Shown in pieces: positions 8,166 through 30,604 of a DNA stretch of 64,000 bases. Source of the stretch: Candidatus Latescibacterota bacterium (GTDB taxonomy: Bacteria > Latescibacterota > UBA2968); assembly GCA_022823725.1 (NCBI GenBank), contig JAJEHL010000039.1:7632-71631 (forward strand). Direction: 5' to 3'. Position 1 is the first letter of the stretch; every line of letters starts with the position of its first letter. The position numbers were made by a program, and so were the translations under genes. The notes beneath the pieces were generated by a model. That model had not been told where the DNA came from and did no database searches. It was given only the letters and a program-made list of their open reading frames with translations.

Positions 8166-11156
8166 TTACTTAATTACTGCGGCTTTGATAAATCGCACCT
8201 CTGTGCGCGTGCTATTGCTGGCTTGCAGGCGACAGATATAGAGGCCGCTGGCATAATCGGATATATCCCAGGCGATTTCGTTGTCAGTATTGGGCATGGG
8301 ATTGTTGTGAGTGAGGTCGGCGACTCTTTCACCGAGGGGATTGTAAATGGTCATAGTGATTTCGGCGGGTTCTAACAAAAAAAAGCGAATGCGCGCCCTG
8401 TCGCCATTGCGGATCGGGTTGGGGTAGAGATATGCTCGTGCCGCAGGTAAAAGCGAGGTTTCTGTTGGGGTTGCGATTTCGCCCGGCTGTTGGAGCAATT
8501 TGCCCGTGTTGCCCGGTCCGCCGCCGAGTTGTCCCCAGATAATTTTGTTACCGGTATAAGATGGGTCAATTGTTTCCAGGTGGAAGAGTTGCGCGCTGCC
8601 GTCGGCGGTATAGATAATGAGTTCCAGGGTGCCGTCGTTGTCAAGGTCGTCGATAAGTGGTGATGAGAGAATGGGGCCGGGTACTAACAGAGGGAAGCCC
8701 GGTAGGGAATGTCCTTCGGCGGTCAGACCGTAGAGGAAGCCACCGCGTGTACCCGCGAAAATATCGGGGGTTGTGTCGTTATTGATGTCGGCGAGAATAG
8801 GCGGTGCTTCAATGGGGCCGGCGTCGTCTTTTATCGGGAGGGCGAGTGCGCCTTCGGTTTGCAAGATGGCGTTGAAGCGATAAAGCCAGAGTTTGCCGTT
8901 GCCGCCAAAGAGGACTTCGACAAATCCGTCGCGATCGACGTCGGCTACAACAGGGGGTGAATGCGCGCCGCCGGGTACGGGATCGCTTGTGAAGGCGAGG
9001 CCGTTGGCGTCGAGGATGGAGAGGATACCGTCTGTTGAGATGACTGCAATGTCGTCATTGCCATCGCGGTCGAGGTCGCCTATTGCCGGGCCGCCGATGA
9101 TGGGAGACGCGAATGTGGCGAGTGGATTGGATTGGTTGGTTCTGTGAATGAGGTGGAGCTGAGCACTGCTGGTAATGGCGATGAGTTCATTGTCCGAGTC
9201 GCCGTCGATATTTCCCACGGCGAGCGATTGGATGGCATCGCTCAGGGCGATGCTGCCCGTGGTTTCAGATAGAAGATTACCCCATTCGATTTTTCCATCG
9301 CTCCTTCCCCAGATATCGACATATGTTGTGGGGAATTTTGCAATGACGGGTGTTGAAGAGAAAAATGGATTGATATCGATGGTTTCGTGGACTGTACCAC
9401 TGGGACGCCAGTGCGTTCGGGTTGTTTCTCCGCGATGATAGATGAATCCGGCTATTTCCGGGTCGCCAATTGCAGGGGTTGTCGCAAATGACTCGTCCAG
9501 GCTGTGCTGTGTGCCCGCGATTTTCCACGCGCCAGCACTGTGAAGGATTTCTTTGCTTCCATCTCCGTCGAGGTCGATGACGCGGGGCGACTCCCGTGTG
9601 GGATTCAAGTTTGTAATCGGCCAGTTATCTATCCGATTGGCAAAACGGATAGCAACTGACATTACTTCGCCGTGTGGGCTGAGTACTTCGATAGTTATGC
9701 CGCTTTCATAGCCTGAGTTGCTGCGGGTGTTCGGCGAGGTGTTGGGATCAAATACGGCGTTGTTGCCCACGTAAAAGGCGTCTTCTGGCGCGCCTTCGAT
9801 ACTGCTTAATGAGATGATACCAGCTTGAATGATGCGGCTGGCCGATACATTGCCGATGTCTTGAAGGCCATCGGCTTCCTCGAGGGCAATGCCGCGGCGA
9901 TATTGGGCGGGTGCAATTTTGTAATCGGGATGGCTATTGATGTGTTTTTCTGCATTGCTGGCCCGAATAATCGCATCGTCAATGTGGTAGATGAGAATGC
10001 CCGAGCCGGGTATGAATGCGTCGTAGTCATCTGTGGAAAGCCAGACATTATGAGGGGTAGAAAATTCGATTTGCGGGATGCGATTTTCAATATTGAGGCG
10101 CGAGTAGCGATTTTCAATTAAAAAATATTCTGTGGCGCTGATAGGTACGCGAATAGCCTGCGGAAGATCGGACGCGCTACCGGATGCAGCGATTTCTACG
10201 GTGTCGTTGTGGGTGATCACGAGTGGTTCGAGCCAGCCGAGTTGCATGCGGCACCAGGCGATCATGCGACTGGGCAAGAATCCAATCAAATTTGTGCTGG
10301 CGGGGTCGTTTCTGAGGGGTTGGAGTCCCAGGCGCGCGGCGTCAATTTGATTGTTGGCACCCGTGTCCATCAAACTCCAGTCGCCAATTGCAGGCAGATC
10401 GTTTTCAAAGTCCGAAAGACCGGGCAAGCCGAGTTGCGAGGCAAAAAATCGAGCGATCGTACCGTTGAGACCACCCTGACCATTTGTGCTGATGGCTTCG
10501 GGCAATAGCATGCCCGATGTGACCTGAAAAGCACCGTTGTTGACGGAAATCGCGCCGTCGGCGAGTTCGATGAGGTCGCGTTCAAAAATAAAGGCCGAGG
10601 GTATATCATTGAGTTTTTGACCTGCTTCTCCGCCGAGTCCCGCATGAAATACTGCAAAGGCGCGGTATTTTGAGAAATCTATATTTGCGCCATCTGTGTT
10701 ATCCGCAGCGCGAATACCATCCCGAAAAAGCCGCGTGACGCGCTCATTTATTTCGCGCCTTGTGCGCCCATTGCCGTATTCGATCAAGGGGGTGTCGAGG
10801 ACGTAACTCGCGGTGGAGTCTTGTGGATAGACATCGTATTCGATGGTTAGTTGACCTCGGGATATGTCGCGGTAATAATTGGACAGTGCCTGCAGGTGGG
10901 CTTCAAAATAGGCGCGGTCATGGGGGGGGGCATCAAAGGGGTAGATGCGATCGGGACTTTCGACTGTACTGAGATTGAACGTGCCGTTTCCACTGGTGGT
11001 TTCGTTGTCGGGATCTTCGGGGGGAAAAGAGACGCGCACGGCTAAGACGCGATAGGTTGGGTCAGCTATAATAGGCTGTACAAAAAGGGCTATAAGACAC
11101 AGGAGGATTCCGCATCTGGACAGAAGGGTCATAGTTAAGCGTGTATTCGGTTTCAT
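8166..11156 (-). CDS. large secreted M6 (immune-inhibitor-A)-like domain protein with FG-GAP repeats and T9SS C-terminal sorting domain
   Basis: Signal peptide is present. The segment ...TIARFFASQLGLPGLSDFENDLPAIGDWSLMDTG resembles the M6 HEYGHNLGLPDEY...WSLM region, but with the His/Glu positions substituted. There are at least six FG-GAP-like Ca-binding repeats (IDLDGDGSKEIL, GNIDGDSDNELIAI, GDLDRDGNDDIAVI, ADVDRDGFVEVLF, ADINNDTTPDIFAG, DDLDNDGTLELIIY). The C-terminus LYPNPIRNGDRARIRFFL...TMTIYNPLGERVADL...GLYICRLQA...VRFIKAAVIK fits the T9SS CTD (Por secretion tail). Confidence 0.7.
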   Translation of the reverse strand: MKPNTRLTMTLLSRCGILLCLIALFVQPIIADPTYRVLAVRVSFPPEDPDNETTSGNGTFNLSTVESPDRIYPFDAPPHDRAYFEAHLQALSNYYRDISRGQLTIEYDVYPQDSTASYVLDTPLIEYGNGRTRREINERVTRLFRDGIRAADNTDGANIDFSKYRAFAVFHAGLGGEAGQKLNDIPSAFIFERDLIELADGAISVNNGAFQVTSGMLLPEAISTNGQGGLNGTIARFFASQLGLPGLSDFENDLPAIGDWSLMDTGANNQIDAARLGLQPLRNDPASTNLIGFLPSRMIAWCRMQLGWLEPLVITHNDTVEIAASGSASDLPQAIRVPISATEYFLIENRYSRLNIENRIPQIEFSTPHNVWLSTDDYDAFIPGSGILIYHIDDAIIRASNAEKHINSHPDYKIAPAQYRRGIALEEADGLQDIGNVSASRIIQAGIISLSSIEGAPEDAFYVGNNAVFDPNTSPNTRSNSGYESGITIEVLSPHGEVMSVAIRFANRIDNWPITNLNPTRESPRVIDLDGDGSKEILHSAGAWKIAGTQHSLDESFATTPAIGDPEIAGFIYHRGETTRTHWRPSGTVHETIDINPFFSSTPVIAKFPTTYVDIWGRSDGKIEWGNLLSETTGSIALSDAIQSLAVGNIDGDSDNELIAITSSAQLHLIHRTNQSNPLATFASPIIGGPAIGDLDRDGNDDIAVISTDGILSILDANGLAFTSDPVPGGAHSPPVVADVDRDGFVEVLFGGNGKLWLYRFNAILQTEGALALPIKDDAGPIEAPPILADINNDTTPDIFAGTRGGFLYGLTAEGHSLPGFPLLVPGPILSSPLIDDLDNDGTLELIIYTADGSAQLFHLETIDPSYTGNKIIWGQLGGGPGNTGKLLQQPGEIATPTETSLLPAARAYLYPNPIRNGDRARIRFFLLEPAEITMTIYNPLGERVADLTHNNPMPNTDNEIAWDISDYASGLYICRLQASNSTRTEVRFIKAAVIK

Positions 11157-18172: not shown

Positions 18173-18198
18173 ATGACAAACCGATTGTGAGGTGTTTT

Positions 18199-18969
18199 AT
18201 GGCTGCCGAAGAAAAAACAGAAACAAATGCAGAGGCCGAAGAAGCGACAGTTGTACGCACACAAGATGTGAAAAAGGTGTACATAATGGGCGAGGAGCAG
18301 ATTCACGCACTCAAAGGTGTGGATCTGGAAGTGACGCAGGGCGAATACCTGTCCATCATGGGACCTTCTGGTTCGGGAAAGAGTACTTTGTTTAATATGG
18401 TGGGGGGATTGGATAAGCCGACAGAGGGCAAGGTTTATATCGATGACGTAGATGTCGCCCAACTCGACGCTTATGAACTCGCGTGGTTGCGCTGCCGAAA
18501 GATCGGTTATATTTTTCAATCTTATAATTTGATTCCGGTGATGACAGCGCTTGAGAATGTGACCTTGCCGATGGTGTTTGCCGGGCTGACGAGCGACGAG
18601 GCGCGCGACAAGGGTGTAGACTTGTTGACGCAGGTCGGTCTGGGCGAGCGCGTGATGCACAAGCCTTTTGAGCTTTCGGGCGGTCAGCAGCAGCGCGTGG
18701 CTGTTGCGCGGGCTTTTGCCAACGATCCGGCGATCATTTTGGCTGACGAGCCGACTGGGAATCTCGATTTGAATACGGGGCGGGAGATTATTGAGTTGTT
18801 GCGCCAGATGAACGAAGAGTCGGGTGTGACTGTGATTTCAGCGACGCACGATCACAAGATGCTGTCGGTGTCCGACCGCGTGGTGTGGGTGCGCGATGGT
18901 CGCGTAGATCGCATTATTGATCGCGACGAGTTGAAGATTGAGGTGGGCACGATTGACGGCCATGAATAA
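18199..18969 (+). CDS. ABC transporter ATP-binding protein (MacB/LolD-type)
   Basis: Walker A GPSGSGKST, Q-loop, ABC signature LSGGQQQRVAVARA and Walker B IILADEPTGNLD are all present. Confidence 0.9.
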   Translation: MAAEEKTETNAEAEEATVVRTQDVKKVYIMGEEQIHALKGVDLEVTQGEYLSIMGPSGSGKSTLFNMVGGLDKPTEGKVYIDDVDVAQLDAYELAWLRCRKIGYIFQSYNLIPVMTALENVTLPMVFAGLTSDEARDKGVDLLTQVGLGERVMHKPFELSGGQQQRVAVARAFANDPAIILADEPTGNLDLNTGREIIELLRQMNEESGVTVISATHDHKMLSVSDRVVWVRDGRVDRIIDRDELKIEVGTIDGHE

Positions 18970-18995
18970 CTTCCTTCTTGACACTGTTTTAGAAT

Positions 18996-19025
18996 TTGTT
19001 ATCTTTGGCGCGTCTGATATATAAC
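18996..19025 (+). promoter_or_regulatory. candidate sigma70-type promoter for trp leader/operon (-35 TTGTTA, -10 TATAAC, 18-nt spacer)
   Basis: Hexamers read from the sequence about 8-25 nt upstream of the leader RBS AAGGAA (19034-19039). The match is weak and has not been checked against any model. Confidence 0.25.
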
Positions 19026-19048
19026 TCTCGTTTAAGGAATTTGGTGTG

Positions 19049-19153
19049 ATGAACGCTTTTGCAACCTACTTCTGGTATTTTTGGCGTCGATTTGACGGCC
19101 GATATTATTATTATCGCCGCCTGTCCAAGAGTGTGGTTTGTCCTGCGTTTTAA
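19049..19153 (+). CDS. candidate trp-operon leader peptide, 34 aa, aromatic-rich (MNAFATYFWYFWRRFDGRYYYYRRLSKSVVCPAF)
   Basis: An ATG with RBS AAGGAA 9 nt upstream opens a 34-codon ORF containing 2 Trp, 4 consecutive Tyr (TAT x4) and 4 Phe codons. It lies about 25 nt upstream of a terminator hairpin and about 110 nt upstream of trpE. Confidence 0.5.
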   Translation: MNAFATYFWYFWRRFDGRYYYYRRLSKSVVCPAF

Positions 19154-19178
19154 GTGTGATGTAAGTGAATGAAAGTAC

Positions 19179-19215
19179 GAGGTCGTGGGCAAACTGCTCA
19201 CGACCTTTTTTTTTC
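19179..19215 (+). terminator. intrinsic terminator / attenuator hairpin (GAGGTCGTG-loop-CACGACCT followed by T9)
   Basis: The inverted repeat aggtcgtg...cacgacct with an 11-nt loop is followed by ttttttttt. It lies between the leader peptide stop and the trpE RBS. Confidence 0.6.
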
Positions 19216-19262
19216 TGCCTTTCATCTGCGTCCATCTGCGGATTTGACTTAAGGATTTTTTA

Positions 19263-20738
19263 GTGATTCAACCCGATCTCAAAACTGTCGAGAAGCTGAG
19301 CGAAGGCTGTGGTCTCGTTCCCATCTCAAGAGAACTGCTCGCGGATACAGAGACGCCCGTTTCGGCTTATTTGAAAATTCGCGCAAAGTCGTCTCATGCG
19401 TTTTTATTTGAAAGCGTGGTGGGCGGCGAGCAGATTGGGCGGTATTCGTTTTTGGGCGTGGATCCGTTTTTGGTTTTTCGTTCGCGCGGAACAAAAATTT
19501 CGATTGAACAGGCGACAACGGGTGAGTTGAGAATATTTGATGGGGAGCCTGTTGAGGTATTGCGAGGGTTGTTAAAAAAATACCACTCGCAACACATGGA
19601 AGGGTTTCCTCGATTTACGGGCGGTGCTGTGGGCTACGTGAGTTATGATGCCGTGCGTTTGATTGAGCGCATCCCCGAGACGGTTGAAGACGATCTCGAT
19701 ATAGACGATATATTTTTCTCATTTTACGATTCGGTGCTGGCATTTGACAATGTGACGCACAAAGTGCATGTGATGGCCAATGTGCATACAGAGGGCGATT
19801 TGAAGGCGAATTACGCAGATGCAGTCAAACGAATTGATGGACTGATTGAGCTACTGGCGCAACCTGCGGATACATCCTTAAAGCCAGGGACGAGTTCGTG
19901 CGCGGTGACCTCAAATACGAGCAAAGAAGCGTATATGGATGTGGTGGCGCGTTGCAGGGAGTACATCGTGGCGGGTGATATTTTTCAGGTGGTACCTTCG
20001 CAGCGTTTTGCAATGGATGTGACGGTTGATGCGCTGGATATTTATCGGGCGTTGCGGACGGTGAATCCGTCGCCTTATATGTTTCACGTCGATTTGATAG
20101 ACCATCAACTCGTGGGCGCGTCGCCCGAGTTGCTCGTCCGGGTAGAAGATGGGGTGGTGCAGGTGCGCCCCATTGCGGGAACGCGGTGGCGGGGTAAAAC
20201 AGAGGCAGAGGATCAGGTGCTGGCACAGGAGTTGTTGGCAGATGAAAAAGAATGTGCCGAGCATATTATGCTGGTGGATTTGGGACGCAATGATGTGGGG
20301 CGCGTCTCAAGGTTTGATACGGTGCGCGTGACCGAGCAGATGACGATTGAACGCTATTCGCATGTGATGCATATCGTTTCGAATGTGCGCGGTGAATTGC
20401 ACGAGGATGTCGATGCGCTGGACGCGCTTTTTGCCTGTTATCCGGCTGGTACGGTGTCGGGCGCGCCAAAAATTCGGGCAATGGAGATTATCGACGAGAT
20501 GGAGCCAACGCGTCGCGGGCCTTATGCCGGTGCGGTGGGTTATATCGATTTTGCGGGCAATATGGATACGTGTATTGCCATTCGCACGATGGTGATTAAG
20601 GAAGGCAAAGCGTATGTGCAGGCAGGGGGGGGCGTGGTGTTTGATTCAGAGCCGGGATACGAATATCAGGAGACCGTGAACAAAGCACGGGCACTGTTTC
20701 GGGCGGTAGAAATGGCTGAAGGAGGAGAGTTGTTGTGA
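19263..20738 (+). CDS. trpE: anthranilate synthase component I
   Basis: 491 aa with a chorismate-binding enzyme fold and conserved TrpE blocks (...[16 protein letters not shown]..., ...[12 protein letters not shown]..., ...[20 protein letters not shown]...). GTG start with AAGGA RBS. Confidence 0.9.
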
Positions 20739-21298
20739 TTCTCGTCATTGATAATTACGATTCTTTTACTTATAACCTCGTTCAATATCTCGGGGAACTG
20801 GGTGCGGATTTGGTGGTCTATCGCAATGATCAAATTTCACTTGAAGAGATTGATGATATGGCACCTGAGAAGATCGTGATTTCCCCGGGGCCATGCACGC
20901 CAAATGAGGCGGGAATTTCCGTGGCTCTGGTGCAGCATTTTGCGGGAAAGATTCCTATTTTAGGGGTTTGTCTGGGGCATCAGTCCATTGGGCAGGCATT
21001 TGGCGGGAAAATTGTGGGCGCGCCGACGATTATGCACGGGAAGGTGTCGGAGATTCATCATAGAGGGGAGTCTATTTTTGAGGGATTACCCGAGCCGTTT
21101 ATTGCTACGCGCTATCACTCTTTGATAGTGGAGAGAGATAGCCTTCCCGATTGTCTGGAGATTACGGCTGAGACCGATGATGGCGTGATTATGGGGTTGC
21201 GCCATCGAGATATGGCGGTGGATGGCGTACAGTTTCATCCCGAATCGATTTTGACAGGTGAAGGCAAGAATTTGTTGCAAAACTTTCTCGATACATGA
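20735..21298 (+). CDS. trpG: anthranilate synthase component II (glutamine amidotransferase)
   Basis: [23 protein letters not shown]...[11 protein letters not shown]...HPESIL is a class I GATase with the Cys-His-Glu triad. It overlaps trpE by 4 nt. Confidence 0.9.
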
Positions 21299-21314
21299 TT
21301 TGTGAGCTGAGGAG

Positions 21315-22334
21315 ATGAGTATGAACATACAAGAGGCAATTGCAAAAGTGATTGAAGGTGCAGATTTGAGCCGGGATGAGATGGCGGATGCGATGACTCA
21401 GATTATGTCGGGCGAGGCGACGGACGCGCAGATCGGCGCGTTTTTGATTGCGTTGCGCGTGAAGGGCGAGTGTGTTGATGAGATTGCCGGGGCCGCGTCT
21501 GTGATGCGCGAGAAGGCGACGCCGATTGTGACAAAGCACGATGTGATTGTCGATACCTGTGGCACGGGGGGCGATCATTCGGGCACGTTTAATATTTCGA
21601 CAACGGCGGCATTTGTCGCGGCTGGGGCGGGTTTGTGTGTGGCAAAACACGGCAATCGCGCGGCGACGAGCCAAAGTGGTAGCGCGGATGTGCTGGGTGC
21701 ATTGGGTGTGAATATTGAGGCATCGCCCGAGACGGTGAGCAGGTGTCTGGACGATGTGGGTATCGGGTTTTTGTTTGCCATTTCGTTGCATGGGGCGATG
21801 AAATACGCGATTGGGCCGCGTCGGGAAATTGGTGCGCGGACAATTTTCAATGCGCTGGGGCCACTGAGCAATCCGGCGGGTGCAACGCGGCAGGTGGTCG
21901 GTGTGTACAGCGCGGCATTGATCGAGACACTTGCAGGTGTTTTGGGGAATCTGGGGGCGGAGCGCGCGTTTGTCGTTCACGGTTCGGATGGTTTGGATGA
22001 GATGACGTTGACGGGACTGACGAGGGTGAGCGAATTGAAGAATGGCTCAGTTTCGACGTATGACGTATCACCCGGGGACTTTGGGTTGGCGCAGGCTTCA
22101 GCCGATGCGTTAAAAGGTGGAGATGCCGATTATAATGCAGAGATTACGCGGTCGATTTTGAATGGCGAAGAAGGTCCTCGGCGCGATATTGTGTTGTTGA
22201 ATGCGGCGGCGGCGATTGTGGCGGGCGATAAGGCGCGTGATCTAAATGAAGGCGTGCAGGTCGCGGCTGAAGTGATTGATTCGGGTAAGGCGTTGGAGAA
22301 GTTGGAGGGGTTGGTCGCGGCGAGTCGGGAATGA
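21315..22334 (+). CDS. trpD: anthranilate phosphoribosyltransferase
   Basis: ...DTCGTGGDHSGTFNISTTAAFVAAGAGLCVAKHGNRAATSQSGSADVLGALG... is the TrpD signature. Confidence 0.9.
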   Translation: MSMNIQEAIAKVIEGADLSRDEMADAMTQIMSGEATDAQIGAFLIALRVKGECVDEIAGAASVMREKATPIVTKHDVIVDTCGTGGDHSGTFNISTTAAFVAAGAGLCVAKHGNRAATSQSGSADVLGALGVNIEASPETVSRCLDDVGIGFLFAISLHGAMKYAIGPRREIGARTIFNALGPLSNPAGATRQVVGVYSAALIETLAGVLGNLGAERAFVVHGSDGLDEMTLTGLTRVSELKNGSVSTYDVSPGDFGLAQASADALKGGDADYNAEITRSILNGEEGPRRDIVLLNAAAAIVAGDKARDLNEGVQVAAEVIDSGKALEKLEGLVAASRE

Positions 22335-22357
22335 TTTTGGAGATGGAGTGACGTAAA

Positions 22358-23422
22358 ATGTCTCTTTCGGTAGGTGTTGCTGGTTTGCGATTTGGCATGT
22401 CCTGGGCGCAGGTGTTTGATGCGTATGCCGAGACTGAGTTGGTCGCTGTTTGTGATGTTCAGGAGGAGAGCCTTAGCCAGGCAAAAGAGCGGTTGGGTGT
22501 CGATGCCTGTTATACAGCTTTTGACGATCTGGTCGCTGATGAACGGATTGATGCGGTGGCTATTTTTACTCCCGCACCGCTTCATGCAGAACAGGTGATT
22601 CGAGCGATTCGGGCCGGTAAGCACGTTTTGTGTGCTGTCCCCGCTGCGCTGACTATGGATGAGGCAAAGGCATTGGTCGAGGCCGTTTCAAATAGTGACC
22701 GCATTTATATGATGGCTGAGAATTGGGTCTATGAACCCAGTGTGGTGCGTGCGAAGTCGCTTTATGAAGCGCAAAAATTGGGGCGTATTTACTATGCCGA
22801 GGCCGAGTATATTCACGGTCTAAAAGCGTTGAGACGACATCCCGATGGGCGTCCTACCTGGCGGAATAGTTTGCAACCCCTTCTTTATCCGACACATGGG
22901 ACGTCGCCGTATTTGAATATGACGGGCGATCGTTTGGTTGAGGTCATGGCTGTTTCGGCATCAGGGCGAGATGAATTTTTAGGGGGGTATGAAGCAGATT
23001 GGGTGCAGACGGCTTTGTTCCGAACGGAAGCAGGCGCGGTGTTCAGGTTGACCAATTCGTTTCAGAATGTGCATGGGATGAGCCATTTCTTGAGCTTTTA
23101 TGGCGATGAGGGGTCTTTTGAGACGGGGCGATTTCGCGAAGCAAGAACGGTGTGTTATTATTCGGTGGGAAATAAAGAGCAGGTGACGCGCGAAGAATGC
23201 CACCACCCCGAATTATCCCAGTTTTCGGACGCACTCGGTGCAGGGCATGGCAAAACGAGTATGCTCATTGTTCTGGATTTTGTGCGGGCGATTGTGAATG
23301 GGTCGCCATCGCCGATAGATTTGATGCAGGCGCTGGATATGACACTGCCCGGTATTGCGGGATTGCAGGCGGTGCGCGAAAATGGATGGGTGTCTGTTCC
23401 CGATCCGCGGTCTTGGCTTTAG
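22358..23422 (+). CDS. Gfo/Idh/MocA-family NAD(P)-dependent oxidoreductase
   Basis: The N-terminal Rossmann region (LSVGVAGLRFGMSWAQVF...VAVCDVQEESLSQAKERLG...) and ...AIRAGKHVLCAVP... are typical of Gfo/Idh/MocA. It is inserted between trpD and trpC. Confidence 0.75.
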   Translation: MSLSVGVAGLRFGMSWAQVFDAYAETELVAVCDVQEESLSQAKERLGVDACYTAFDDLVADERIDAVAIFTPAPLHAEQVIRAIRAGKHVLCAVPAALTMDEAKALVEAVSNSDRIYMMAENWVYEPSVVRAKSLYEAQKLGRIYYAEAEYIHGLKALRRHPDGRPTWRNSLQPLLYPTHGTSPYLNMTGDRLVEVMAVSASGRDEFLGGYEADWVQTALFRTEAGAVFRLTNSFQNVHGMSHFLSFYGDEGSFETGRFREARTVCYYSVGNKEQVTREECHHPELSQFSDALGAGHGKTSMLIVLDFVRAIVNGSPSPIDLMQALDMTLPGIAGLQAVRENGWVSVPDPRSWL

Positions 23423-23447
23423 CTCTGTCTGAGGATGGTGGGATTTT

Positions 23448-24242
23448 ATGGCCGGTAATATTCTCGACAAAATTGTGGCGTATAAACGCGAGTTTCTCGC
23501 CAGGTGTATGGCGCAGATGCCGTTTGAAGAGATGGCGCGATTGGCAGAAGATGCGCGAGAACCGCCTTCATTTTTTGATGGGCTGATAGATGGGGACGAT
23601 ATTGCTGTGATCGCCGAGGTCAAAAAGGCATCGCCGTCTAAGGGCGTGATCCGCGGGGATTTTGATGCGGTGGATATTGCGAAGGTTTATGTGGAAAATG
23701 GGGCTTCGGCGCTTTCGGTATTGACGGATGAGAAATTTTTTCAGGGGTCGGCAGATTATTTGACTCAGATTTCAACCGTTGTTGATCGGCCCATTTTGCG
23801 CAAGGATTTTACTATTGATCCCTATCAAATTTATGAAGCGCGCGCGATTGGAGCTTCGGCTGTGTTGTTGATTGTGTCGATTTTGACGCCTGGAGAATTG
23901 TCCTCATTTATAGCGACGAGTCGGGCATTGGGGCTGGATGCGCTGGTAGAGGTACACGAGAGAGAGGAACTGATGGTCGCGCTCGATGCGGGTGCGGAGA
24001 TTGTGGGGATTAACAATCGGAATTTGAAAACTTTTGATACGTCTCTGGATACGACTTATGGGTTGATAGATCACATCCCTGATGACGTGTTGACGGTGAG
24101 TGAGAGCGGTATTTATACGCGCGAGGATGTTGTCGCGCTTCGAGATGCGGGTGCAGATGCCGTGCTGGTGGGCGAGAGTTTGATGCGCGAATCGGATATT
24201 GCCGCCAAGTTGCAGGAGCTGATGGGATATGGTGCGAGCTAA
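23448..24242 (+). CDS. trpC: indole-3-glycerol phosphate synthase
   Basis: ...IAEVKKASPSKGVIRGDFDAVDIAKVY...GASALSVLTDEKFFQGS... is the IGPS signature. Confidence 0.9.
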   Translation: MAGNILDKIVAYKREFLARCMAQMPFEEMARLAEDAREPPSFFDGLIDGDDIAVIAEVKKASPSKGVIRGDFDAVDIAKVYVENGASALSVLTDEKFFQGSADYLTQISTVVDRPILRKDFTIDPYQIYEARAIGASAVLLIVSILTPGELSSFIATSRALGLDALVEVHEREELMVALDAGAEIVGINNRNLKTFDTSLDTTYGLIDHIPDDVLTVSESGIYTREDVVALRDAGADAVLVGESLMRESDIAAKLQELMGYGAS

Positions 24243-24837
24243 AATTTGCGGTGTTACAAATCGGGATGATGCGCTGTGCGCGATTGATAATGGCGCAGAT
24301 GCTCTGGGGTTTAATTTTTACGAGAAGAGTCTTCGCTATATCGCACCCGAGAAAGCTGGAGAAATTGTTTTTGATTTGCCGCCGTTTGTGACGCCCGTAG
24401 GGATATTCGTGAATGCATCGGAGCGAGAAATTGATATTGCCGTGAAGTTGGCGGGGCTGCGGGCGATTCAATTGCACGGGGATGAACCTCCCGAAGCATG
24501 TCTGAGGCATGCGGTTCCTGTGATTCGCGCGCTTCGCGTGGGACGCGATTTTGATGTGCATACCATGGGATCGTATCTGGTCAATACCTTCTTATTGGAT
24601 GCAGAGAAAGCGGGGTCTTACGGCGGTACGGGAGAGACATTTGACTGGACAAAGGCGATGGAAGCAAAAAGGTATGGGCGCATTATTCTTGCCGGTGGTT
24701 TAAATCCGGATAATGTTCAGGAGGCGATTGAGCAAGTTGGCCCCTATGCGGTGGATACGAGTAGTGGTGTGGAAGCCGAGCCAGGGAAGAAGGATCACAA
24801 AAAAGTACGAGATTTTTTGGCGCGTGTAAAGGCGTAA
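24229..24837 (+). CDS. trpF: phosphoribosylanthranilate isomerase
   Basis: MVRAKICGVTNRDDALCAIDNGADALGFNFYEKSLRYI... is the PRAI fold. It overlaps trpC by 14 nt. Confidence 0.88.
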   Translation: MVRAKICGVTNRDDALCAIDNGADALGFNFYEKSLRYIAPEKAGEIVFDLPPFVTPVGIFVNASEREIDIAVKLAGLRAIQLHGDEPPEACLRHAVPVIRALRVGRDFDVHTMGSYLVNTFLLDAEKAGSYGGTGETFDWTKAMEAKRYGRIILAGGLNPDNVQEAIEQVGPYAVDTSSGVEAEPGKKDHKKVRDFLARVKA

Positions 24838-24853
24838 ATATGGAGATAAAAAC

Positions 24854-26116
24854 GTGGATGTATTAGACGATTTGGCATTTCGTGGCTATATTTTTCAGAT
24901 GACAGATGAAGATAAGCTCCGCAGGCGTTTGGCAGAGGGACGGATGACACTGTATTGCGGATTTGACCCCACTGCCGATAGTCTGCATGCGGGCAGCCTG
25001 GTTCCCCTTATGGGATTGCGTCGCTTTCAAGATGCGGGGCACAAGCCCATTGCACTTGTGGGCGGGGGCACGGGGTTGATTGGCGATCCGAGTGGGAAAG
25101 CAGAAGAGCGACAGTTGAATTCACTGGAGGTGGTGCAGGCATATACAGAGCGTCAGCGCGCGCAATTGGAAAAGTATCTGGATTTTGAGACCGGGCACAA
25201 TCAGGCTCTGATGGTGAGCAATTATACCTGGCTTTCAGAGTTGCGTACGATTGAATTTTTACGCGATGTGGGCAAACACTTTTCAATGGGGTATATGCTG
25301 GGCAAAGAGTCGGTGTCGTCGCGTCTTTCGACCGGGATTTCGTTTACCGAATTTAGTTATATGGTTTTGCAGGCTTATGACTTTATGGAGTTGAATCGGG
25401 AGTATGGTTGTGAGCTTCAGATCGGAGGTAGCGATCAGTGGGGCAATATTACGGCAGGGATAGAGTTGTGTCGGCGCATGCTCAATAAGACTGTCTATGG
25501 GTTGACTTTTCCGTTGTTGGAAAAGTCTGATGGGACAAAGTTTGGCAAGACAGAGACGGGAACGTTATGGCTCGATCCCGAAAAGACATCGCCCTATCAA
25601 TTTTATCAGTTTTGGGTGAATGCAGCAGATCGCGATGTGGTGAAATTTTTAAAGTTGTTCACTTTTTTGAGCCGCGAACGCATAGAGGAGTTGGAACGAG
25701 AGGTGGAGGCACGGCCCGAGAAGCGCGAGGCGCAGCGCGTGCTGGCCGAAGAGGTGACGACTTTTATCCACGGTGTGGCCGCAAAGAATCGCGCCGTGCA
25801 TATTTCCGAGGCGTTGTTTTATGGCAATTTGCAGGATTTGAATGAACAGGAGGTCGCAGAGGGATTTAGCGATGTGCCATCTTACGCGCTCAATGGTGGC
25901 GATGAAGTGGGGTTGATCGATTTGCTCGTGGATGCACAAATTTCATCGTCCAGACGACAGGCGCGCGAAGATATCAGGACCGGTGCCATTTATATTAATG
26001 GTCAAAGGTGTACAGATATGGGCCATATTTTAGAGCCATCTGAAAGACTGGCTGGAAAATATCTGGTGATGCGCCGCGGTAAACGCCGCTACTTTTTGGT
26101 GAGTTGGTCGGTGTGA
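24854..26116 (+). CDS. tyrS: tyrosyl-tRNA synthetase
   Basis: The HIGH-type region ...LYCGFDPTADSLHAGSLVPLMGL... and the KMSKS-type KFGKTETG are present, with a C-terminal S4-like domain. GTG start. Confidence 0.88.
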   Translation: MDVLDDLAFRGYIFQMTDEDKLRRRLAEGRMTLYCGFDPTADSLHAGSLVPLMGLRRFQDAGHKPIALVGGGTGLIGDPSGKAEERQLNSLEVVQAYTERQRAQLEKYLDFETGHNQALMVSNYTWLSELRTIEFLRDVGKHFSMGYMLGKESVSSRLSTGISFTEFSYMVLQAYDFMELNREYGCELQIGGSDQWGNITAGIELCRRMLNKTVYGLTFPLLEKSDGTKFGKTETGTLWLDPEKTSPYQFYQFWVNAADRDVVKFLKLFTFLSRERIEELEREVEARPEKREAQRVLAEEVTTFIHGVAAKNRAVHISEALFYGNLQDLNEQEVAEGFSDVPSYALNGGDEVGLIDLLVDAQISSSRRQAREDIRTGAIYINGQRCTDMGHILEPSERLAGKYLVMRRGKRRYFLVSWSV

Positions 26117-26174
26117 CTGGGCAGGTGCATGTAGATTTTTTACTAACTACTTAATTCCAAAGAAAGGATTTTTT

Positions 26175-27152
26175 ATGAAAGCACCCTGGATTACCTACCG
26201 CCCGGAACTCAAGGTACTCGATTGTACGATCCGAGACGGCGGTTTGATGAATGACCATCATTTTGATGATGATTTTGTGAAAGCCGTGTATGAAACATGT
26301 GTCGCGGCGGGTGTTGACTATATGGAAATTGGGTACCGAAACTCCAAGGAGATGTTCCCCAAAGAAGATTTTGGTGCATTCCGCCACAGCGATGAAGAGG
26401 ATATTCGCAAAATTACCGGGGATCACGATCCCGAAGCAACGGGGATGAAACTCGCTATTATGGCCGATGCTGGCAAGAGCGATTGGGCCAAAGATATTTT
26501 GCCATCCGGCGAGAGCGTGGTCGATATGGTGCGCGTGGCGTGTTACGTCGATCAGATTCCCGAGACCGTTGAAATGTTGCTCGATGCCCATGAAAAGGGA
26601 TATGAAACGAGTTGTAATATTATGGCGATTTCGACTGTGCAAGATGTCGAGATTGATCAGGCATTAGAAGTGTTGATGCAAACTCCTGTGGGTACGATTT
26701 GCGTTGTGGATAGTTTCGGCGCCCTGTACCGCGAGCAGGTTGATATGCTTGTGCGAAAATACATGGACGCGACCAAAGGCTCGGGCAAAGAGGTGGGCAT
26801 TCACGCGCACAACAATCAGCAACTGGCATTTGCCAATACCATTGAGGCCATTATTCTGGGGGCCAACCGAATCGATGCCACTGTGGATGGATTGGGTCGC
26901 GGTGCGGGCAATTGTCCCATGGAATTGTTGCTCGGTTTTTTGCGGAATCCCAAGTTTAAGATCCGCCCTGTCTATAAGTTGCTGGAAGAGCATTTTGTCA
27001 AGTTGCGCCGCGAAATGGCGTGGGGGCCTCTGGTGCCCTATAACATCACGGGCCAGCACAACCAGCATCCCCGCGAGGCTATGGCATTGCTCGATGGTGA
27101 TGACCGCGAGCAGTATCTGGCGTTTTACGACCGCGTGGTTGGAGATGTTTAA
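26175..27152 (+). CDS. DRE-TIM metallolyase, DmpG/BphI-like (4-hydroxy-2-oxovalerate aldolase family) without adjacent DmpF-type dehydrogenase
   Basis: ...[12 protein letters not shown]..., ...[10 protein letters not shown]..., ...[45 protein letters not shown]... match the metal-binding DRE-TIM motifs of DmpG-like aldolases. It lies between tyrS and trpB. Confidence 0.65.
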
Positions 27153-27165
27153 GGGGATATACAAT

Positions 27166-28371
27166 ATGGCTGTAGATGCGAGTGATTTGCCCGATGCGCG
27201 CGGGCATTTTGGACCTTATGGTGGGCAGTATGTGCCCGAGACACTTATGGCGCTGTTGGAAGACCTGGAGGCGGCTTATCGGGAGGCAAAGCGCGATCCC
27301 GAGTTTTGGGCTGAACTGGATCGGTATTTGCGCGATTATGTCGGGCGGCCCACGCCGCTTTATTTTGCCGAGCGGTTGACAGAAGAACTCGGCGGCCCTA
27401 AAATTTATCTCAAGCGCGAAGACCTCGCCCATACGGGAGCGCATAAAATCAATCATGCCATGGGGCAGATTTTGCTCGCCAACCGAATGGGCAAGACGCG
27501 GATTATTGCCGAGACCGGCGCTGGGCAACACGGCGTGGCAACGGCAACTGTGGCGGCGATGTTCGGTCTCAAATGCGAAATTTACATGGGTGTTGAAGAT
27601 ATGGAACGGCAAGCGCTCAATGTGTTTCGCATGCGGCTCCTGGGTGCAAAAGTTACGGGTGTCCATTCGGGTAGCAAAACGCTGAAAGATGCGATTAATG
27701 AGGCTATCCGAGACTGGGTGACCAATGTAGAGGATACGTTTTATATTTTCGGTTCGGTTTTGGGACCGCATCCATATCCGATGATTGTGCGCGATTTCCA
27801 GCGGGTTATTGGCGTTGAAGCTCGTGCTCAAATTTTGGAGAGAGAAGGCCGATTGCCCGATGTGCTCGTCGCCTGTGTGGGCGGGGGAAGCAATTCTATC
27901 GGGTTGTTTCACGCTTTTTTGGATGATGCCAATGTGCAAATGATCGGCGTGGAGGCCGGGGGGCACGGTATTGCGTCTGGCGAGCACGCTGCGCGATTTA
28001 ATGGTGGCGATTTGGGGGTTTTGCACGGTGCGCGCATTTATGTGTTGCAAGATGATGACGGGCAAATCGCATTGACGCATTCGGTATCGGCTGGTCTCGA
28101 TTATTCGGGTGTGGGGCCAGAGCATTGCTATTTGCGAGATATGGCGCGTACGGCTTATACGTATGCGACGGATGAGGAAGCTCTCAGTGCTTTTGAGTTG
28201 CTCAGTCATACCGAAGGGATTATTCCCGCTTTGGAGAGTGCACACGCGATTGCCCATGTTTGCAAGTTGGCCCCCGAGATGAGTCGAGAGCAGATTGTGG
28301 TGGTCAATTTATCGGGACGCGGGGACAAAGATGTGCAGCAGGCGGCGCGGTTTATAGAAGGAGTGAGATGA
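27166..28371 (+). CDS. trpB: tryptophan synthase beta chain
   Basis: ...[16 protein letters not shown]..., ...[24 protein letters not shown]..., ...[10 protein letters not shown]... The start is set at ATG 27166 with RBS AAGGGG; the track ORF extends upstream into the preceding gene. Confidence 0.9.
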
Positions 28372-29171
28372 CGCGGATTAGACAGCGGTTTGAAGACTTG
28401 AGAAAAGCGGGCAGGACCGGGTTCGTCGCGTATATTACGGCGGGTGATCCGGATTTAAATACCACCCATCAGGTGGTGTTGGAATTGGATCGGCAGGGTG
28501 TGGATGTCCTGGAATTGGGTGTTCCCTTTTCAGATCCTCTGGCGGATGGGCCTGTGATTCAGGAGGCGTCACAACGCGCTTTGGCCGCTGGTGCAACGCT
28601 CGAGGGCGTGTTGTCTATGGTTGCAGATGTGCGCGCTGAGACCGAAATCCCCATTGTGCTGTTTACGTATTACAATCCGATTCATCGCTACGGTGTGGAG
28701 CGCTTTGTAAAACGCGCTGCAGATGTGGGCGTAGATGGTGTTCTGATGCTGGATCTGCCTCCGGAAGAGGGCGGTGATTACATAGCGCGGATGAATGAGT
28801 ACGGGCTGGATACAATTTTTCTCATGACACCTACCACGCGCGATGATCGGATGAAGCTGATTGCATCGCATACCAGGGGTTTTGTCTATTATGTGTCGCG
28901 CACCGGGGTGACGGGCGAGCGCGATTCTCTGGCTGATGAAATTCAAAGTAAGGTGTCTGCGATATGCCAGTACACAGATATGCCGATTGCCGTTGGATTT
29001 GGGATTTCAACGCCCGAGCATGTATCGGAAATTGCGCGGTATGCCGATGCGGTTGTGGTTGGTAGCGCGATTGTGCGTCGTGTGGGTGAGTACCAAAACG
29101 ATGTGGATCTGGTTTCAAAGGTCGGTGCTTTTGTCGGGTCTTTGATTGACCCTTTGAGAGAAGGTGTGTAG
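28368..29171 (+). CDS. trpA: tryptophan synthase alpha chain
   Basis: [33 protein letters not shown]...[18 protein letters not shown]... with an ATGA start/stop overlap with trpB. Confidence 0.88.
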
Positions 29172-29174
29172 GTT

Positions 29175-29459
29175 ATGGAGAAGGATCTGGATTTCTGGCG
29201 CGAGAAAATTGATGTCTTAGATGATCAAATTCTCGAGTTGCTCAATGAGCGTGCTCGATGTGCGCTGTCTGTGGGAAAAATTAAGTGTGCCGAGGGTTTG
29301 CCCTATCATGTCCCTGAACGAGAAACCCTGATTCTCAACCGCATTCGCGAATTGAATGGCGGTCCTTTGAGTCACGAAGCAGCACAACGCATTTTTAGAC
29401 AGATTATCGATGAGTCACTGCGGTTGGAAGAAGATCACGCAGAGTTTAAAAAAAGGTAA
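29175..29459 (+). CDS. chorismate mutase (AroQ class, monofunctional)
   Basis: 94 aa; ...REKIDVLDDQILELLNERARCALSVGKIK... is the AroQ helical CM signature. Confidence 0.8.
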   Translation: MEKDLDFWREKIDVLDDQILELLNERARCALSVGKIKCAEGLPYHVPERETLILNRIRELNGGPLSHEAAQRIFRQIIDESLRLEEDHAEFKKR

Positions 29460-29464
29460 TTATT

Positions 29465-30490
29465 ATGAGTTTCAAACGGATTCAGCCCATTCCCAGTGCA
29501 GAAGAAATTCAAGATGTTTTGCCTCTGCCCGATGATTTGAAGGCTAAGAAGGATGAACGCGATGCCGAGATTCGGGCTGTTTTTGAGCGTAAGAGCGATA
29601 AGTTTTTGTTGATTATTGGTCCTTGCTCGGCTCACAATGTCGATGCGGTGTGCGAATATGTGAATCGCCTATCGCGACTTCAAGAGCAGGTGAAAGACAA
29701 GTTGGTGCTCGTGCCGCGGATTTATACCAATAAGCCGCGCACGACTGGCGAAGGGTATAAGGGCATGGCCCATCAACCCGATCCCGAGGGTATGCCCGAT
29801 ATGGTTGTTGGGATTAAGACTATTCGGCAGATGCAGATTCGCGCTTTTCGCGAGTCGCATTTGACGGCTGCCGATGAGATGCTCTATCCTTCGAATTTGC
29901 CTTATGTGGAGGATTTGCTGAGTTATATTGCCGTGGGGGCGCGGTCTGTTGAGAATCAGAATCATCGCCTGACCATTAGCGGTGTCGATGTGCCTGCGGG
30001 CATGAAAAATCCAACGGGTGGCGATCTGGATGTGATGTTCAATGCCATTTATGCAGCGCAAATTCCGCATGTATTTTTTCACAACGGTTGGGAAGTCAGC
30101 ACGTCGGGCAATCCGCTGACGCATGCGGTGTTGCGCGGAATGTCGTATAATGGGCGGAGCATCCCCAATTATCACTACGAAGATTTGATGCATGTTGCCG
30201 AGCAATACCTGACGCGCAAGTTGAGCAATCCGACGATTATTGTGGATACGAATCACAACAATTCAGATAAAACGTTTTCCGAACAGCCGCGCATTGGTCT
30301 GGAGGTGATGCGCAGCCGCCGCCATTCTGCGCTTCTTCACAATGTGGTGCGCGGGTTGATGGTGGAGAGCTATCTGGTGGAAGGCGCGCAAAAACCCGAA
30401 GAGGGGATATTTGGGAAGTCGATTACCGATCCATGCCTGGGGTGGGAAGATACGGAAGTGTTTGTGAAAGACCTGGCGGGTCTGGTTTAG
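29465..30490 (+). CDS. 3-deoxy-7-phosphoheptulonate (DAHP) synthase, class I alpha
   Basis: ...FLLIIGPCSAHNVDAVCEYVNRL... and ...KNPTGGDL... are class I DAHP synthase blocks. Confidence 0.85.
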   Translation: MSFKRIQPIPSAEEIQDVLPLPDDLKAKKDERDAEIRAVFERKSDKFLLIIGPCSAHNVDAVCEYVNRLSRLQEQVKDKLVLVPRIYTNKPRTTGEGYKGMAHQPDPEGMPDMVVGIKTIRQMQIRAFRESHLTAADEMLYPSNLPYVEDLLSYIAVGARSVENQNHRLTISGVDVPAGMKNPTGGDLDVMFNAIYAAQIPHVFFHNGWEVSTSGNPLTHAVLRGMSYNGRSIPNYHYEDLMHVAEQYLTRKLSNPTIIVDTNHNNSDKTFSEQPRIGLEVMRSRRHSALLHNVVRGLMVESYLVEGAQKPEEGIFGKSITDPCLGWEDTEVFVKDLAGLV

Positions 30491-30511
30491 GGGTGTGAAA
30501 CCCCCAGATAA

Positions 30512-30604
30512 TACGAAGCGAAGTACGATCTGGATGGCGATGGCACAATTGGATTTGGTGATTTTCTCATTTTTGCCAACGACTTCGGTAAAGAAGCGTC
30601 ATAA
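30512..30604 (+). pseudogene. relic 3' end of a dockerin-bearing gene (single dockerin repeat, no start codon)
   Basis: The frame between TAA (30509-30511) and TAA (30602-30604) encodes YEAKYDLDGDGTIGFGDFLIFANDFGKEAS. This matches the second dockerin-like repeat of the proteins at 2239-3795 and 11166-12512 but lacks any upstream coding body or start. Confidence 0.55.

Follow-up and report, generated by a model that had tools for sequence, protein, structure and literature searches.

The trpE gene of a Candidatus Latescibacterota bacterium is preceded by a short open reading frame (ORF) and an intrinsic terminator that we interpret, with a probability of roughly 0.85, as a classical ribosome-mediated (leader-peptide) transcription attenuator of an aromatic amino acid supraoperon. 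We examined this leader unit in a 64,000-nucleotide (nt) stretch of contig JAJEHL010000039.1 (GenBank assembly GCA_022823725.1), here called the window; the unit and the operon behind it lie on its forward strand. The interpretation draws on the leader ORF, its conservation and coding-type insertions and deletions (indels), the aromatic enrichment of its peptide, the terminator, three competing RNA helices in each lineage, and a conserved operon. The features that define leader-peptide attenuators and could be tested here were all found: the position of a Shine-Dalgarno sequence and an ORF, codon enrichment, a terminator, an antiterminator helix (2:3), and an anti-antiterminator helix (1:2). 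Judged from the sequence, Trp sensing by this leader is very likely, and additional sensing of Tyr and Phe, for which there is statistical support, is plausible.

Anatomy of the leader unit

A promoter, a Shine-Dalgarno sequence, the leader ORF, a terminator, and trpE follow each other in this order in the window, which is the complete anatomy of an attenuator. The promoter-like site was recognized by sequence and is sigma-70-like (positions 18978 to 19005; TTGACA, a 16-nt spacer, and a TG-extended TATCTT). The Shine-Dalgarno sequence, AAGGAA (19034 to 19039), also recognized by sequence, is followed by the ATG of the leader 9 nt further on. The leader ORF (19049 to 19153) is supported by its translation, its conservation, and its aromatic rank; it starts with ATG at 19049, ends with TAA at 19151 to 19153, and encodes in its 34 codons the peptide MNAFATYFWYFWRRFDGRYYYYRRLSKSVVCPAF. 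This peptide contains 2 Trp, 6 Tyr, and 5 Phe (Phe at positions 4, 8, 11, 15, and 34), in total 13 aromatic residues out of 34. The initial annotation had the position and the exact translation of this ORF right, including its ribosome binding site, the YFWYFW motif, and the four tandem Tyr codons, but counted four Phe instead of five. The first cluster of regulatory codons, Y7 F8 W9 Y10 F11 W12 .. F15 (19067 to 19093), reaches up to or into the 5′ strand of helix 1:2. The four consecutive UAU Tyr codons (codons 19 to 22; 19103 to 19114) lie within the loop of an inner hairpin in which 19083 to 19091 is paired to 19113 to 19121.

A 25-nt spacer separates the leader stop codon from the terminator hairpin (19179 to 19207; 13 bp, loop AAC, −21.0 kcal/mol), and a T9 tract occupies 19206 to 19214. 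The Shine-Dalgarno sequence of trpE, AAGGA, is at 19251 to 19255 and its GTG start codon at 19263. Hairpin, T9 tract, and trpE ribosome binding site were all located where the initial annotation had placed them; the sigma-70-like promoter and a tyrS gene in the operon are additions to it. We looked for a promoter-like site in the window between the terminator and trpE and saw none.

Four segments make up the structured RNA. Segment 1 (19053 to 19075) is the 5′ strand of the anti-antiterminator helix 1:2, as defined by an RNAalifold consensus of 10 sequences and by single-sequence minimum free energy (MFE) folds. Segment 2 (19125 to 19148), the 3′ strand of the same helix, was defined by masked folds, the RNAalifold consensus, and duplex analysis. 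Its core, GUUUGUCC (19136 to 19143), spans codons V30-C31-P32 and has segment 3 as its alternative partner; UGUCCA (19122 to 19127), upstream of the core, is also able to pair with segment 3. Segment 3 (19179 to 19194; from the hairpin, the alignment, and masked folds) consists of the terminator 5′ arm GAGGUCGUGGGCA and the loop AAC, and segment 4 (19195 to 19214; from the hairpin call) is the terminator 3′ arm UGCUCACGACCUU leading into the T9 tract. The stop codon of the leader starts 8 nt past the segment 2 core and 3 nt past the end of segment 2.

Conservation of the leader ORF

The window belongs to Candidatus Latescibacterota according to a TrpE-based scan of one genome per species, in which TrpE identity was 84 to 96% to loci L001 to L009 and 66 to 72% to L010 to L012. 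The leader ORF is kept 5′ of trpE in 14 Latescibacterota loci (L001 to L009, L010/L082, L011/L081, and L012; TrpE identity, 66 to 96%), and a co-oriented small ORF is present at the equivalent position in 12 of the 12 loci L001 to L012. It is also retained in L166, a distant Latescibacterota locus. Outside this phylum, leaders were found in L085, a member of candidate division KSB1 with 55% TrpE identity, and in L167, from Calditrichota. The relevant loci added by a metagenome scan with the TrpE of L011 were just L082, L085, and L084, the last of them without a leader.

The leader of L001 to L009 reads MNAFAT[YH]FWYFWRRFDGRYYY(Y)RRPSKSVVCPA[FC], with close variants. It reads MNSSNRYWRGYFNRSFRYYGEMLQNTVCPPG in L010 (and L082), MDSKNLYWRGYFYRFSRFYWEMQFRAVCPSF in L011 (and L081), and MTSNRAFSFSFLRSYYDYWSSFYGEDCPSR in L012. 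The position of the Tyr run holds three to four Tyr codons in L001 to L009 and YY, FYW, or YYDYW in L010 to L012. Among the more distant leaders, L085 has MKSTVSINKRNKSCIYYWAWYWYCAPEVGGICP, with no Phe, and L167 has MKQQLPTSFSLCWWYWWWYGSASGGGKCPPV, with five Trp, two Tyr, and one Phe; the leaders of L161, L162, L163, and L164 are MSIFPSTNFRFNRWLWWRNWCHSGRDTVFPYQ, MARFFPTFWFWFFWGFWYYARSGKDAAMKTA, MRFSLPTHLFWSFGGFWYWYYYARSGKGAVLRAT, and MLNILSTAYFWRFWYWYYCANSGKDVRKSKPD, respectively, and that of L166 is MRAHPLALLVGCFWYWRKNIGGDVCLSAGLVR, with just one Tyr and one Phe. The KSB1 and Calditrichota leaders are rich in Trp, Tyr, and Phe, as in Latescibacterota, while their nucleotide sequences are very different.

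In the alignments, five indels fall inside the ORF body, each of 3 or 6 nt. The sole exception to this in-frame pattern is L009, where a 1-nt insertion lies 9 nt before the ancestral stop codon and the peptide then ends after Cys-Pro. All three indels in the 25- to 30-nt spacer 3′ of the stop codon are of 1 nt. By its in-frame indels and its retention the leader ORF behaves as a coding sequence, which is comparative evidence for its translation.

The signals around the ORF recur as well. The element CTTGACA-N16/17-T(T)AT(C/A)TT is found at the same place before most leaders outside the subgroup of L001, L006, and L007 (it is imperfect in L166, with GCTTGCC, and masked by N in L164), Shine-Dalgarno-like purine runs precede most homologous leaders, and a terminator with a U-run was present in 13 of 13 lineages examined. 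Further, the leader travels with trpE: in L001, L006, and L007, lolD and the leader are ∼600 nt apart, with a different sequence in between, and in the KSB1 loci the leader precedes trpE although the upstream genes are unrelated.

These leader peptides have been called as genes nowhere. Public gene calls place spurious antisense or 5′-extended ORFs over them (L161, 3603 to 3890, minus strand; L162, 3806 to 3973, minus strand; L167, 3614 to 3883, plus strand), and 10 leader variants, looked up by exact match among 15 billion collected proteins, were all absent. Small ORFs with “HFWHFM” before planctomycete trpE genes (L013, L015, L019, and L021) were rejected as candidate leaders; they are the antisense of a divergent gene start (MKCQKCAKPA...).

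Aromatic composition of the leader peptide

The window leader ranked first in aromatic fraction among 541 ORFs of 25 to 60 codons from the six frames of the window (0.37; mean, 0.08; standard deviation, 0.053). Its best 16-residue stretch held 11 aromatic residues, compared with 7 in the runner-up. Measured against the window's own proteins, the enrichment in this single peptide had binomial P values of 4e-4 for Tyr, 9e-3 for Phe, and 0.06 for Trp. When 12 non-redundant leaders were pooled and compared with the same background, Trp (7.6-fold; P = 2e-18), Tyr (3.6-fold; P = 7e-12), and Phe (2.7-fold; P = 6e-8) were the top three of 20 residues, with P values that are inflated because the leaders were selected in part by their aromatic content. 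Next in enrichment were Cys (2.6-fold) and Ser (1.7-fold), which may reflect drift from aromatic codons, as Cys and Ser codons are one step from UGG, UAU, and UUU. Leu was depleted (0.48-fold) despite also having U-first codons. The Tyr and Phe codons used in the leader are the major Tyr and Phe codons of the genome.

For contrast with these mixed leaders, a Syntrophaceae (deltaproteobacterial) trpE locus, L062, carries at 4402 to 4470 an ordinary Trp-only leader of the WWW type (MMQTALLNNWWWQIQEEGFVRC) with a terminator of −17.5 kcal/mol.

Competing RNA helices

The MFE fold of the full window leader combines a long helix 1:2 (19053 to 19075 with 19125 to 19148) with the terminator (z = −2.3 versus shuffles). 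This combination of 1:2 and 3:4 was the full-length MFE in 11 of 12 sequences folded, a count in which the window is entered from one of two folding runs, its fold being different in the other; the exception among the 12 was L085, which folded into the antiterminator without a terminator. The RNAalifold consensus of ten close sequences agreed with the MFEs in giving 1:2 plus 3:4. Helix 1:2 joins the early, mostly aromatic, codons to the 3′ end of the ORF.

Stalled ribosomes were represented by masking everything up to 12 nt past the aromatic codon in the A site and by removing the terminator 3′ arm, with the polymerase taken to be still inside the terminator. In the masked window transcript, either UGUCCA or GUUUGUCC paired with UGGGCAAAC (19186 to 19194), which is the top of the terminator 5′ arm plus the loop, at −12 to −25 kcal/mol. 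A ribosome on the stop codon left −1.8 kcal/mol of structure, and the terminator was then the only fold. Most of the masked states shown for L008, L009, L010, L011, L012, and L085 gave the same two behaviors as the window. Across sequences, 2:3 formed at −12 to −33 kcal/mol in most of the states shown that were masked on aromatic codons, whereas masking at the stop codon left only −1.8 to −5.7 kcal/mol of any structure and the terminator formed. Folding thus recovered the mutually exclusive structures that the initial annotation had proposed to look for, 1:2 plus 3:4 on the one hand and the masked 2:3 on the other.

A uniform duplex analysis showed that helices 1:2, 2:3, and 3:4 are possible in every lineage. 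In Latescibacterota, 2:3 is formed by UGYCC with GGGCA. The 13 sequences aligned from this phylum all share UGYCC as the core of segment 2 and UGGGCA as that of segment 3, although terminators normally drift freely. In KSB1 and Calditrichota, segment 1 is CUUCCCAC, segment 2 is GUGGGAAG, segment 3 is ACCCAC, and segment 4 is GUGGGU. Helix 1:2 has −16 to −23 kcal/mol and 2:3 has −13 to −19 kcal/mol in L161 to L164 and L167; both are weaker in L085 (−7.3 and −10.5 kcal/mol, respectively). The counterpart of the window's pairing of GUUUGUCC with GGGCAAAC is, in the distant Latescibacterota locus L166, GUAUGUCU with GGACAUAC; the two differ by one double change, U-A to A-U, and by two wobble-compatible changes. 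The terminator stems covary (GGUCGU/ACGACC, GGCCCU/AGGGCC, and GGCCG/CGGC). This architecture, kept while the sequence changes, is the strongest structural evidence that comparison of the sequences offers for an attenuator.

The operon behind the leader

The operon that the leader is predicted to control runs from trpE to tyrA (19263 to 32436), was identified with Pfam and NCBIfam, and keeps its order in relatives. It comprises trpE, trpG, trpD, a GFO/IDH/MocA oxidoreductase gene, trpC, trpF, tyrS, an HMGL-like aldolase gene, trpB (27166 to 28371), and trpA, followed by genes for a type II chorismate mutase and 3-deoxy-D-arabino-heptulosonate 7-phosphate (DAHP) synthase, a Gp49/HTH toxin-antitoxin pair, and tyrA with an ACT domain. 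Beyond tyrA are an aroA fragment, aroE, and a menG/ubiE-like gene. Upstream of the leader are ftsX-like and lolD-like ABC transporter genes, with the ABC ATPase gene at 18187 to 18969. The mixed aromatic operon with tyrA, chorismate mutase, and DAHP synthase that the initial annotation had described therefore holds and is conserved, with tyrS (TIGR00234, 421 bits) present in addition.

With CM for chorismate mutase and DAHPS for DAHP synthase, the Latescibacterota supraoperon can be written trpEGD..CF-tyrS-trpBA-CM-DAHPS-tyrA and that of KSB1 trpEGDCFBA-CM-DAHPS-tyrA-aroA-aroE. Loci of the L085 type have tyrS just upstream and the operon trpEGDCFBA-CM-tyrA, and the leader there has Trp and Tyr without Phe. 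A single locus, L167 from Calditrichota, has an operon of trpEGDC only, and its leader is Trp-dominated. The sample is small, but the trend fits and suggests, as far as sequence comparison goes, that the codon mix of the leader mirrors the content of the operon.

Proposed mechanism

From these features we infer that ribosomes stall, that kinetic competition switches the fold, and which amino acids are sensed. Transcription would start at the promoter at 18978 to 19005, and a ribosome would load onto the 34-codon leader. With ample charged tRNA, the ribosome would reach the stop codon, with its footprint over segment 2; if no ribosome has loaded, segment 1 would pair with segment 2. In both cases segment 3 would be left free to pair with segment 4, and RNA polymerase would terminate short of trpE, at the T9 tract. 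A shortage of charged tRNA-Trp, and probably also one of tRNA-Tyr or tRNA-Phe, would make the ribosome stall at codons 7 to 15 or on the Tyr run at codons 19 to 22. A ribosome stalled at codons 7 to 15 would cover segment 1, and one stalled on the Tyr run would melt the inner hairpin and sit between segments 1 and 2. Segment 2, through UGUCCA or its core, could then capture UGGGCAAAC of segment 3, UGGGCA(AAC), before segment 4 is made. The terminator could not nucleate, and the operon from trpE to tyrA would be transcribed.

Evidence for and against attenuation

Several observations, in addition to the inflation of the pooled P values, weigh against this interpretation. No leader is present at the trpE of L084 (∼58 to 60% TrpE identity). 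In L010 to L012, a second promoter-like element, CTTGACA...TTATTT, lies between the terminator and trpE and could bypass the attenuator. Neither 1:2 nor 3:4 has a strict double compensatory change among L001 to L009, where the changes are wobble-compatible and one-sided. The window antiterminator is short (6 to 8 bp, about −12 to −13 kcal/mol) and overlaps just the loop-proximal 5 to 6 nt of the 13-nt terminator arm plus the loop. Given a terminator of −21 kcal/mol and the weaker 2:3, the switch would have to be kinetic, as in the Escherichia coli trp operon, and a 2:3 helix this short and limited to the loop-proximal arm would have to work by blocking nucleation of the hairpin. The duplex energy of 2:3 was marginal per sequence when compared with dinucleotide shuffles (P = 0.017 in the window and 0.007 to 0.85 in other lineages), in a test of 2:3 and 1:2 whose chosen “free region” cut into segment 2 of the KSB1 leaders; we therefore rely on the conservation of the architecture across lineages. 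Finally, an equilibrium scan of the upstream pairing of the terminator 5′ arm at every ribosome position did not discriminate between states, because a free G+C-rich arm always finds some partner, and it was replaced by the folds masked up to the 3′ edge of the ribosome.

The second element in L010 to L012 (L010, 3300 to 3470; L011, 2736 to 2906; L012, 4840 to 4941) reads CTTGACA-N17-TTATTTATTTGGCG, is similar to the promoter of the window leader, and is followed by an untranslated stretch of 100 to 170 nt. It may be a bypass of the attenuator or the site of another control element; no Rfam match was found in this region of L010 to L012.

The alternative that survives best shares the mechanism but has the Trp codons as its sole sensors, the Tyr and Phe (and Cys and Ser) codons being mutational neighbors of UGG or by-products of the structure. 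The enrichment of Cys and Ser, which like Trp, Tyr, and Phe have U-first codons (Ser mostly), is what would be expected in that case, and individual aromatic residues are replaced among the leaders (Y7 by H, Y10 by S, and Y22 by C). The lack of Phe in L085 and the single Tyr and Phe in L166 point the same way, as does the position of the four Tyr codons in the loop between segments 1 and 2, outside segment 1. A precedent is the aroR leader (Phe-Tyr-Phe) upstream of aroF in Corynebacterium glutamicum, which is reported to respond to Phe while Tyr availability is without effect (review, PMC11802643). This also counts against Tyr sensing in the window, and since the Tyr codon of aroR is reported to be inert, the Tyr and Phe codons of the window leader cannot be assumed to be sensors. 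Nevertheless, the strong enrichment of Tyr and Phe recurs in three phyla with unrelated nucleotide sequences, and structure alone would hardly produce YYYY, WYWYYY, FWFWFFWGFWYY, and similar in-frame runs. Leu, whose codons are U-first too, is depleted rather than enriched. Moreover, the operons hold tyrA, tyrS, chorismate mutase, and DAHP synthase genes, and the lone trp-only locus is the one with a Trp-dominated leader. On balance we consider it unlikely, though far from negligible, that Trp is the only amino acid sensed.

The opposite possibility is that the leader is a trivalent aromatic sensor, in which a ribosome stalled at codons for any one of the three amino acids would relieve termination, with a design shared by Latescibacterota, KSB1, and Calditrichota through convergent or very old RNA solutions. 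We hold this view tentatively, at a little under even odds. If true, a trivalent leader would control a supraoperon that makes Trp, the common precursors (DAHP and prephenate), and Tyr (tyrA) and that charges tRNA-Tyr (tyrS), and a demonstrated response to tyrosine would be a first for a leader-peptide attenuator.

A different kind of explanation is that promoter, ORF, and terminator make up a separate small gene whose sole function is a trans-acting peptide or small RNA and which is not primarily a cis regulator of trpE. The unit does own a promoter, a Shine-Dalgarno sequence, and a terminator, the second promoter-like element past the terminator in L010 to L012 would suit such an arrangement, and the trpL attenuator RNA (rnTrpL) and peptide (peTrpL) of Sinorhizobium are reported to have trans functions (PMC6614838 and PMC7298713). 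Yet what the lineages share in the peptide is its composition and not its sequence, the unit always lies directly 5′ of trpE and in the same orientation, regardless of the genes further upstream, and the window has no promoter-like site of its own for trpE after the terminator. A plain small gene would not need the conserved helices 1:2 and 2:3, and a trans role would add to attenuation and not replace it. This explanation is therefore quite improbable.

Slightly less probable again is that the hairpin terminates the upstream ftsX-lolD-like operon, or belongs to an undescribed riboswitch or protein-binding leader, and that the ORF is fortuitous. The hairpin lies 210 nt past the ABC ATPase gene, for which no other terminator was seen, but a promoter-like site is placed between lolD and the leader ORF, and the leader unit precedes trpE also where the upstream genes differ. 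The in-frame indels, the Shine-Dalgarno sequence, and the extreme aromatic bias argue against a fortuitous ORF. With regard to known RNA classes, an Rfam scan of 18500 to 19800 at E values up to 10 matched no family, including Trp_leader (RF00513) and the His, Leu, Thr, and Phe leaders, and no match at gathering score, including T-box (RF00230) and riboswitches, was found at the leader in the window or in 8 related loci. What appeared below threshold were chance matches only (a small nucleolar RNA, the terminator part of rli42, and DicF). Rfam holds only families already described, which leaves room for a novel riboswitch. As for a protein-binding leader, a TRAP-type array of 9 to 11 (G/U)AG triplets, spaced by 2 to 3 nt and overlapping the antiterminator, was looked for in 19100 to 19262, and only isolated GAG triplets without periodic arrangement were present.

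Least probable of all is arrest of the TnaC type, in which binding of a free aromatic amino acid by the nascent peptide, inside the exit tunnel, would halt the ribosome close to the stop codon. TnaC has W12 and D16, which the window peptide also carries, and a Cys-Pro pair stands 0 to 3 residues before the leader stop codon in L001 to L012, L085, and L167. We consider it very improbable because D16 and the W12 spacing are missing from L010 to L012, residues are not conserved between lineages beyond composition, Cys-Pro is missing from L161 to L164 and L166 and is explained in Latescibacterota as the segment 2 core, Pro adjoins the stop codon in L009 and L085 only, the terminator is intrinsic so that no Rho-dependent step is needed, and a ribosome arrested at the stop codon would lie over segment 2, favoring termination, which the classical model already gives for a biosynthetic operon.

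The Cys-Pro pair (window, 19139 to 19144; L085, 4651 to 4656, …GGICP*; L167, 3864 to 3869, …GGGKCPPV*) was also considered as a conserved peptide signal and rejected, since it is not universal and in Latescibacterota equals the segment 2 core: it is invariant there because its codons, UGYCC, are themselves that core. In L085 and L167 the Cys-Pro codons are immediately 3′ of segment 2.

Leader-peptide attenuation thus remains the reading we favor. The initial annotation had proposed it and had named what would speak against it, namely, the lack of an alternative antiterminator pairing, a leader ORF not conserved in relatives, or a T-box or riboswitch model for the region. None of these was observed: the alternative pairings form, the leader ORF is conserved from 96% to ∼55% TrpE identity across three candidate phyla, and Rfam gave no match even at the most permissive threshold.

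Other features of the operon region

The tyrS gene (TIGR00234) lies between trpF and trpB across Latescibacterota (window, 24854 to 26116; L011, 8908 to 10020; L012, 10155 to 11279) and just upstream of the leader in the KSB1 loci L085 (3202 to 4356) and L168. The window tyrosyl-tRNA synthetase (420 amino acids) is only ∼30% identical to those of L011 and L012 (∼371 to 375 amino acids), and therefore two types of this enzyme occupy the same operon slot. The GFO/IDH/MocA-type oxidoreductase gene (window, 22358 to 23422) and the HMGL-like gene, which is 4-hydroxy-2-oxovalerate aldolase-like (26175 to 27152), are insertions in the trp operon of the window lineage, L001 to L007; the HMGL-like gene is also in L009, and neither is in L011 or L012. 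The toxin-antitoxin pair, a Gp49/HigB-like toxin (PF05973) and an HTH_37 antitoxin, lies at 30671 to 31306 between the DAHP synthase gene and tyrA. The ORF of aroA, encoding 5-enolpyruvylshikimate-3-phosphate synthase (32363 to 33106), overlaps the end of tyrA, has 247 amino acids, and covers the C-terminal half of the model (225 to 410 of 417), so that it may be a truncated gene or a pseudogene; KSB1 relatives have a full aroA of 428 to 438 amino acids at the corresponding position.

Tandem units of CATCTGCG(T/G) are inserted at the junction between terminator and trpE in the window (19215 to 19250), L007 (∼9880 to 9990), and L009 (∼9965 to 10000). In L012 such units lie instead in the 5′ untranslated region of the leader (∼4640 to 4665), and L001 to L006 are without these insertions. 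The insertion in L007 is of ∼100 nt with inverted ends, GAACCAC(C/A)GAT(A/G)AACAC. The junction insertions may be a small mobile or repetitive extragenic palindrome-like repeat. The motif CCATCTGCGGAT beside the terminator was not overrepresented in the 64-kb window (10 matches versus 7.5 expected), and neither was GTGGGCAAAC. A pair of strong terminator-like and promoter-like signals at 27343 to 27404 was considered as a second attenuator before trpB and rejected as a chance match, because it lies inside trpB.

Comparison with known systems

Our literature search found no described trp attenuator in Latescibacterota, KSB1, or Calditrichota, no leader with all three aromatic amino acids or other aromatic trivalent example, and no leader-peptide attenuator responding to tyrosine. 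Tyrosine genes are described as controlled by T-box elements or TyrR, and a broad survey from 2010 listed leader peptides for Proteobacteria, Actinobacteria, and one Firmicutes his case only (PMC2965389). The leader described here would extend classical leader-peptide attenuation to candidate phyla of the FCB group without cultured representatives (Latescibacterota, KSB1, and Calditrichota), as an unannotated regulatory family that is absent from Rfam and was overlooked by genome annotation. The mechanism is textbook, and therefore the value of the finding is in annotation and comparison, not in new concepts.

Among the closest counterparts in logic is trpL of E. coli and Salmonella, which is represented in Rfam by Trp_leader. 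The two have in common a short leader ORF with Trp codons before trpE, a four-segment RNA with competing 1:2, 2:3, and 3:4 helices, an intrinsic terminator with a U-run, and a stop codon positioned so that an unstalled ribosome would block segment 2. They differ in that there is no similarity in sequence or to the covariance model, the window peptide has 34 residues compared with 14 in trpL, and its two Trp codons are non-adjacent and embedded among Tyr and Phe codons. In the window, segment 2 lies inside the 3′ end of the ORF and there is an extra inner hairpin with the Tyr run. The window operon, from a different phylum, adds tyrS, chorismate mutase, DAHP synthase, and tyrA.

The aroR leader resembles that of the window in mixing aromatic codons in the peptide and in attenuating a DAHP synthase operon. 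However, aroR has no Trp codons and no trp genes behind it, whereas the window leader has 13 aromatic codons of all three kinds before trpE. An upstream ORF with runs of Phe codons has also been described as the uORFC-13-1 motif upstream of aroF in Acholeplasma (PMC8632094). Together with the leaders of E. coli pheA (pheL) and pheST (pheM), it has in common with the window an upstream ORF of aromatic codons, followed by a terminator, before genes of the aromatic pathway or for an aminoacyl-tRNA synthetase. Those leaders sense a single amino acid, control other genes, and have no homology to the window leader.

The aromatic supraoperon of Bacillus subtilis, aroFBH-trpEDCFBA-hisC-tyrA-aroE, is under the control of TRAP, a Trp-activated RNA-binding protein that recognizes (G/U)AG repeats. 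It is like the window operon in joining trp, common-pathway, and Tyr-branch genes in one unit with attenuation before trpE, but the window has no (G/U)AG repeat array and has a translated leader. Multivalent attenuators are known from the enterobacterial thr (Thr and Ile) and ilvGMEDA/ilvBN (Ile, Val, and Leu) leaders. If the window leader is trivalent, it would be like these in mixing codons for several end products of a branched pathway, with starvation for any of them relieving termination, and unlike them in that its set of amino acids is aromatic and not branched-chain or threonine. With an operon behind it that fuses Trp, Tyr, and common-pathway genes with tyrS, the window leader would be a natural system in which to test whether one leader can sense all three aromatic amino acids.

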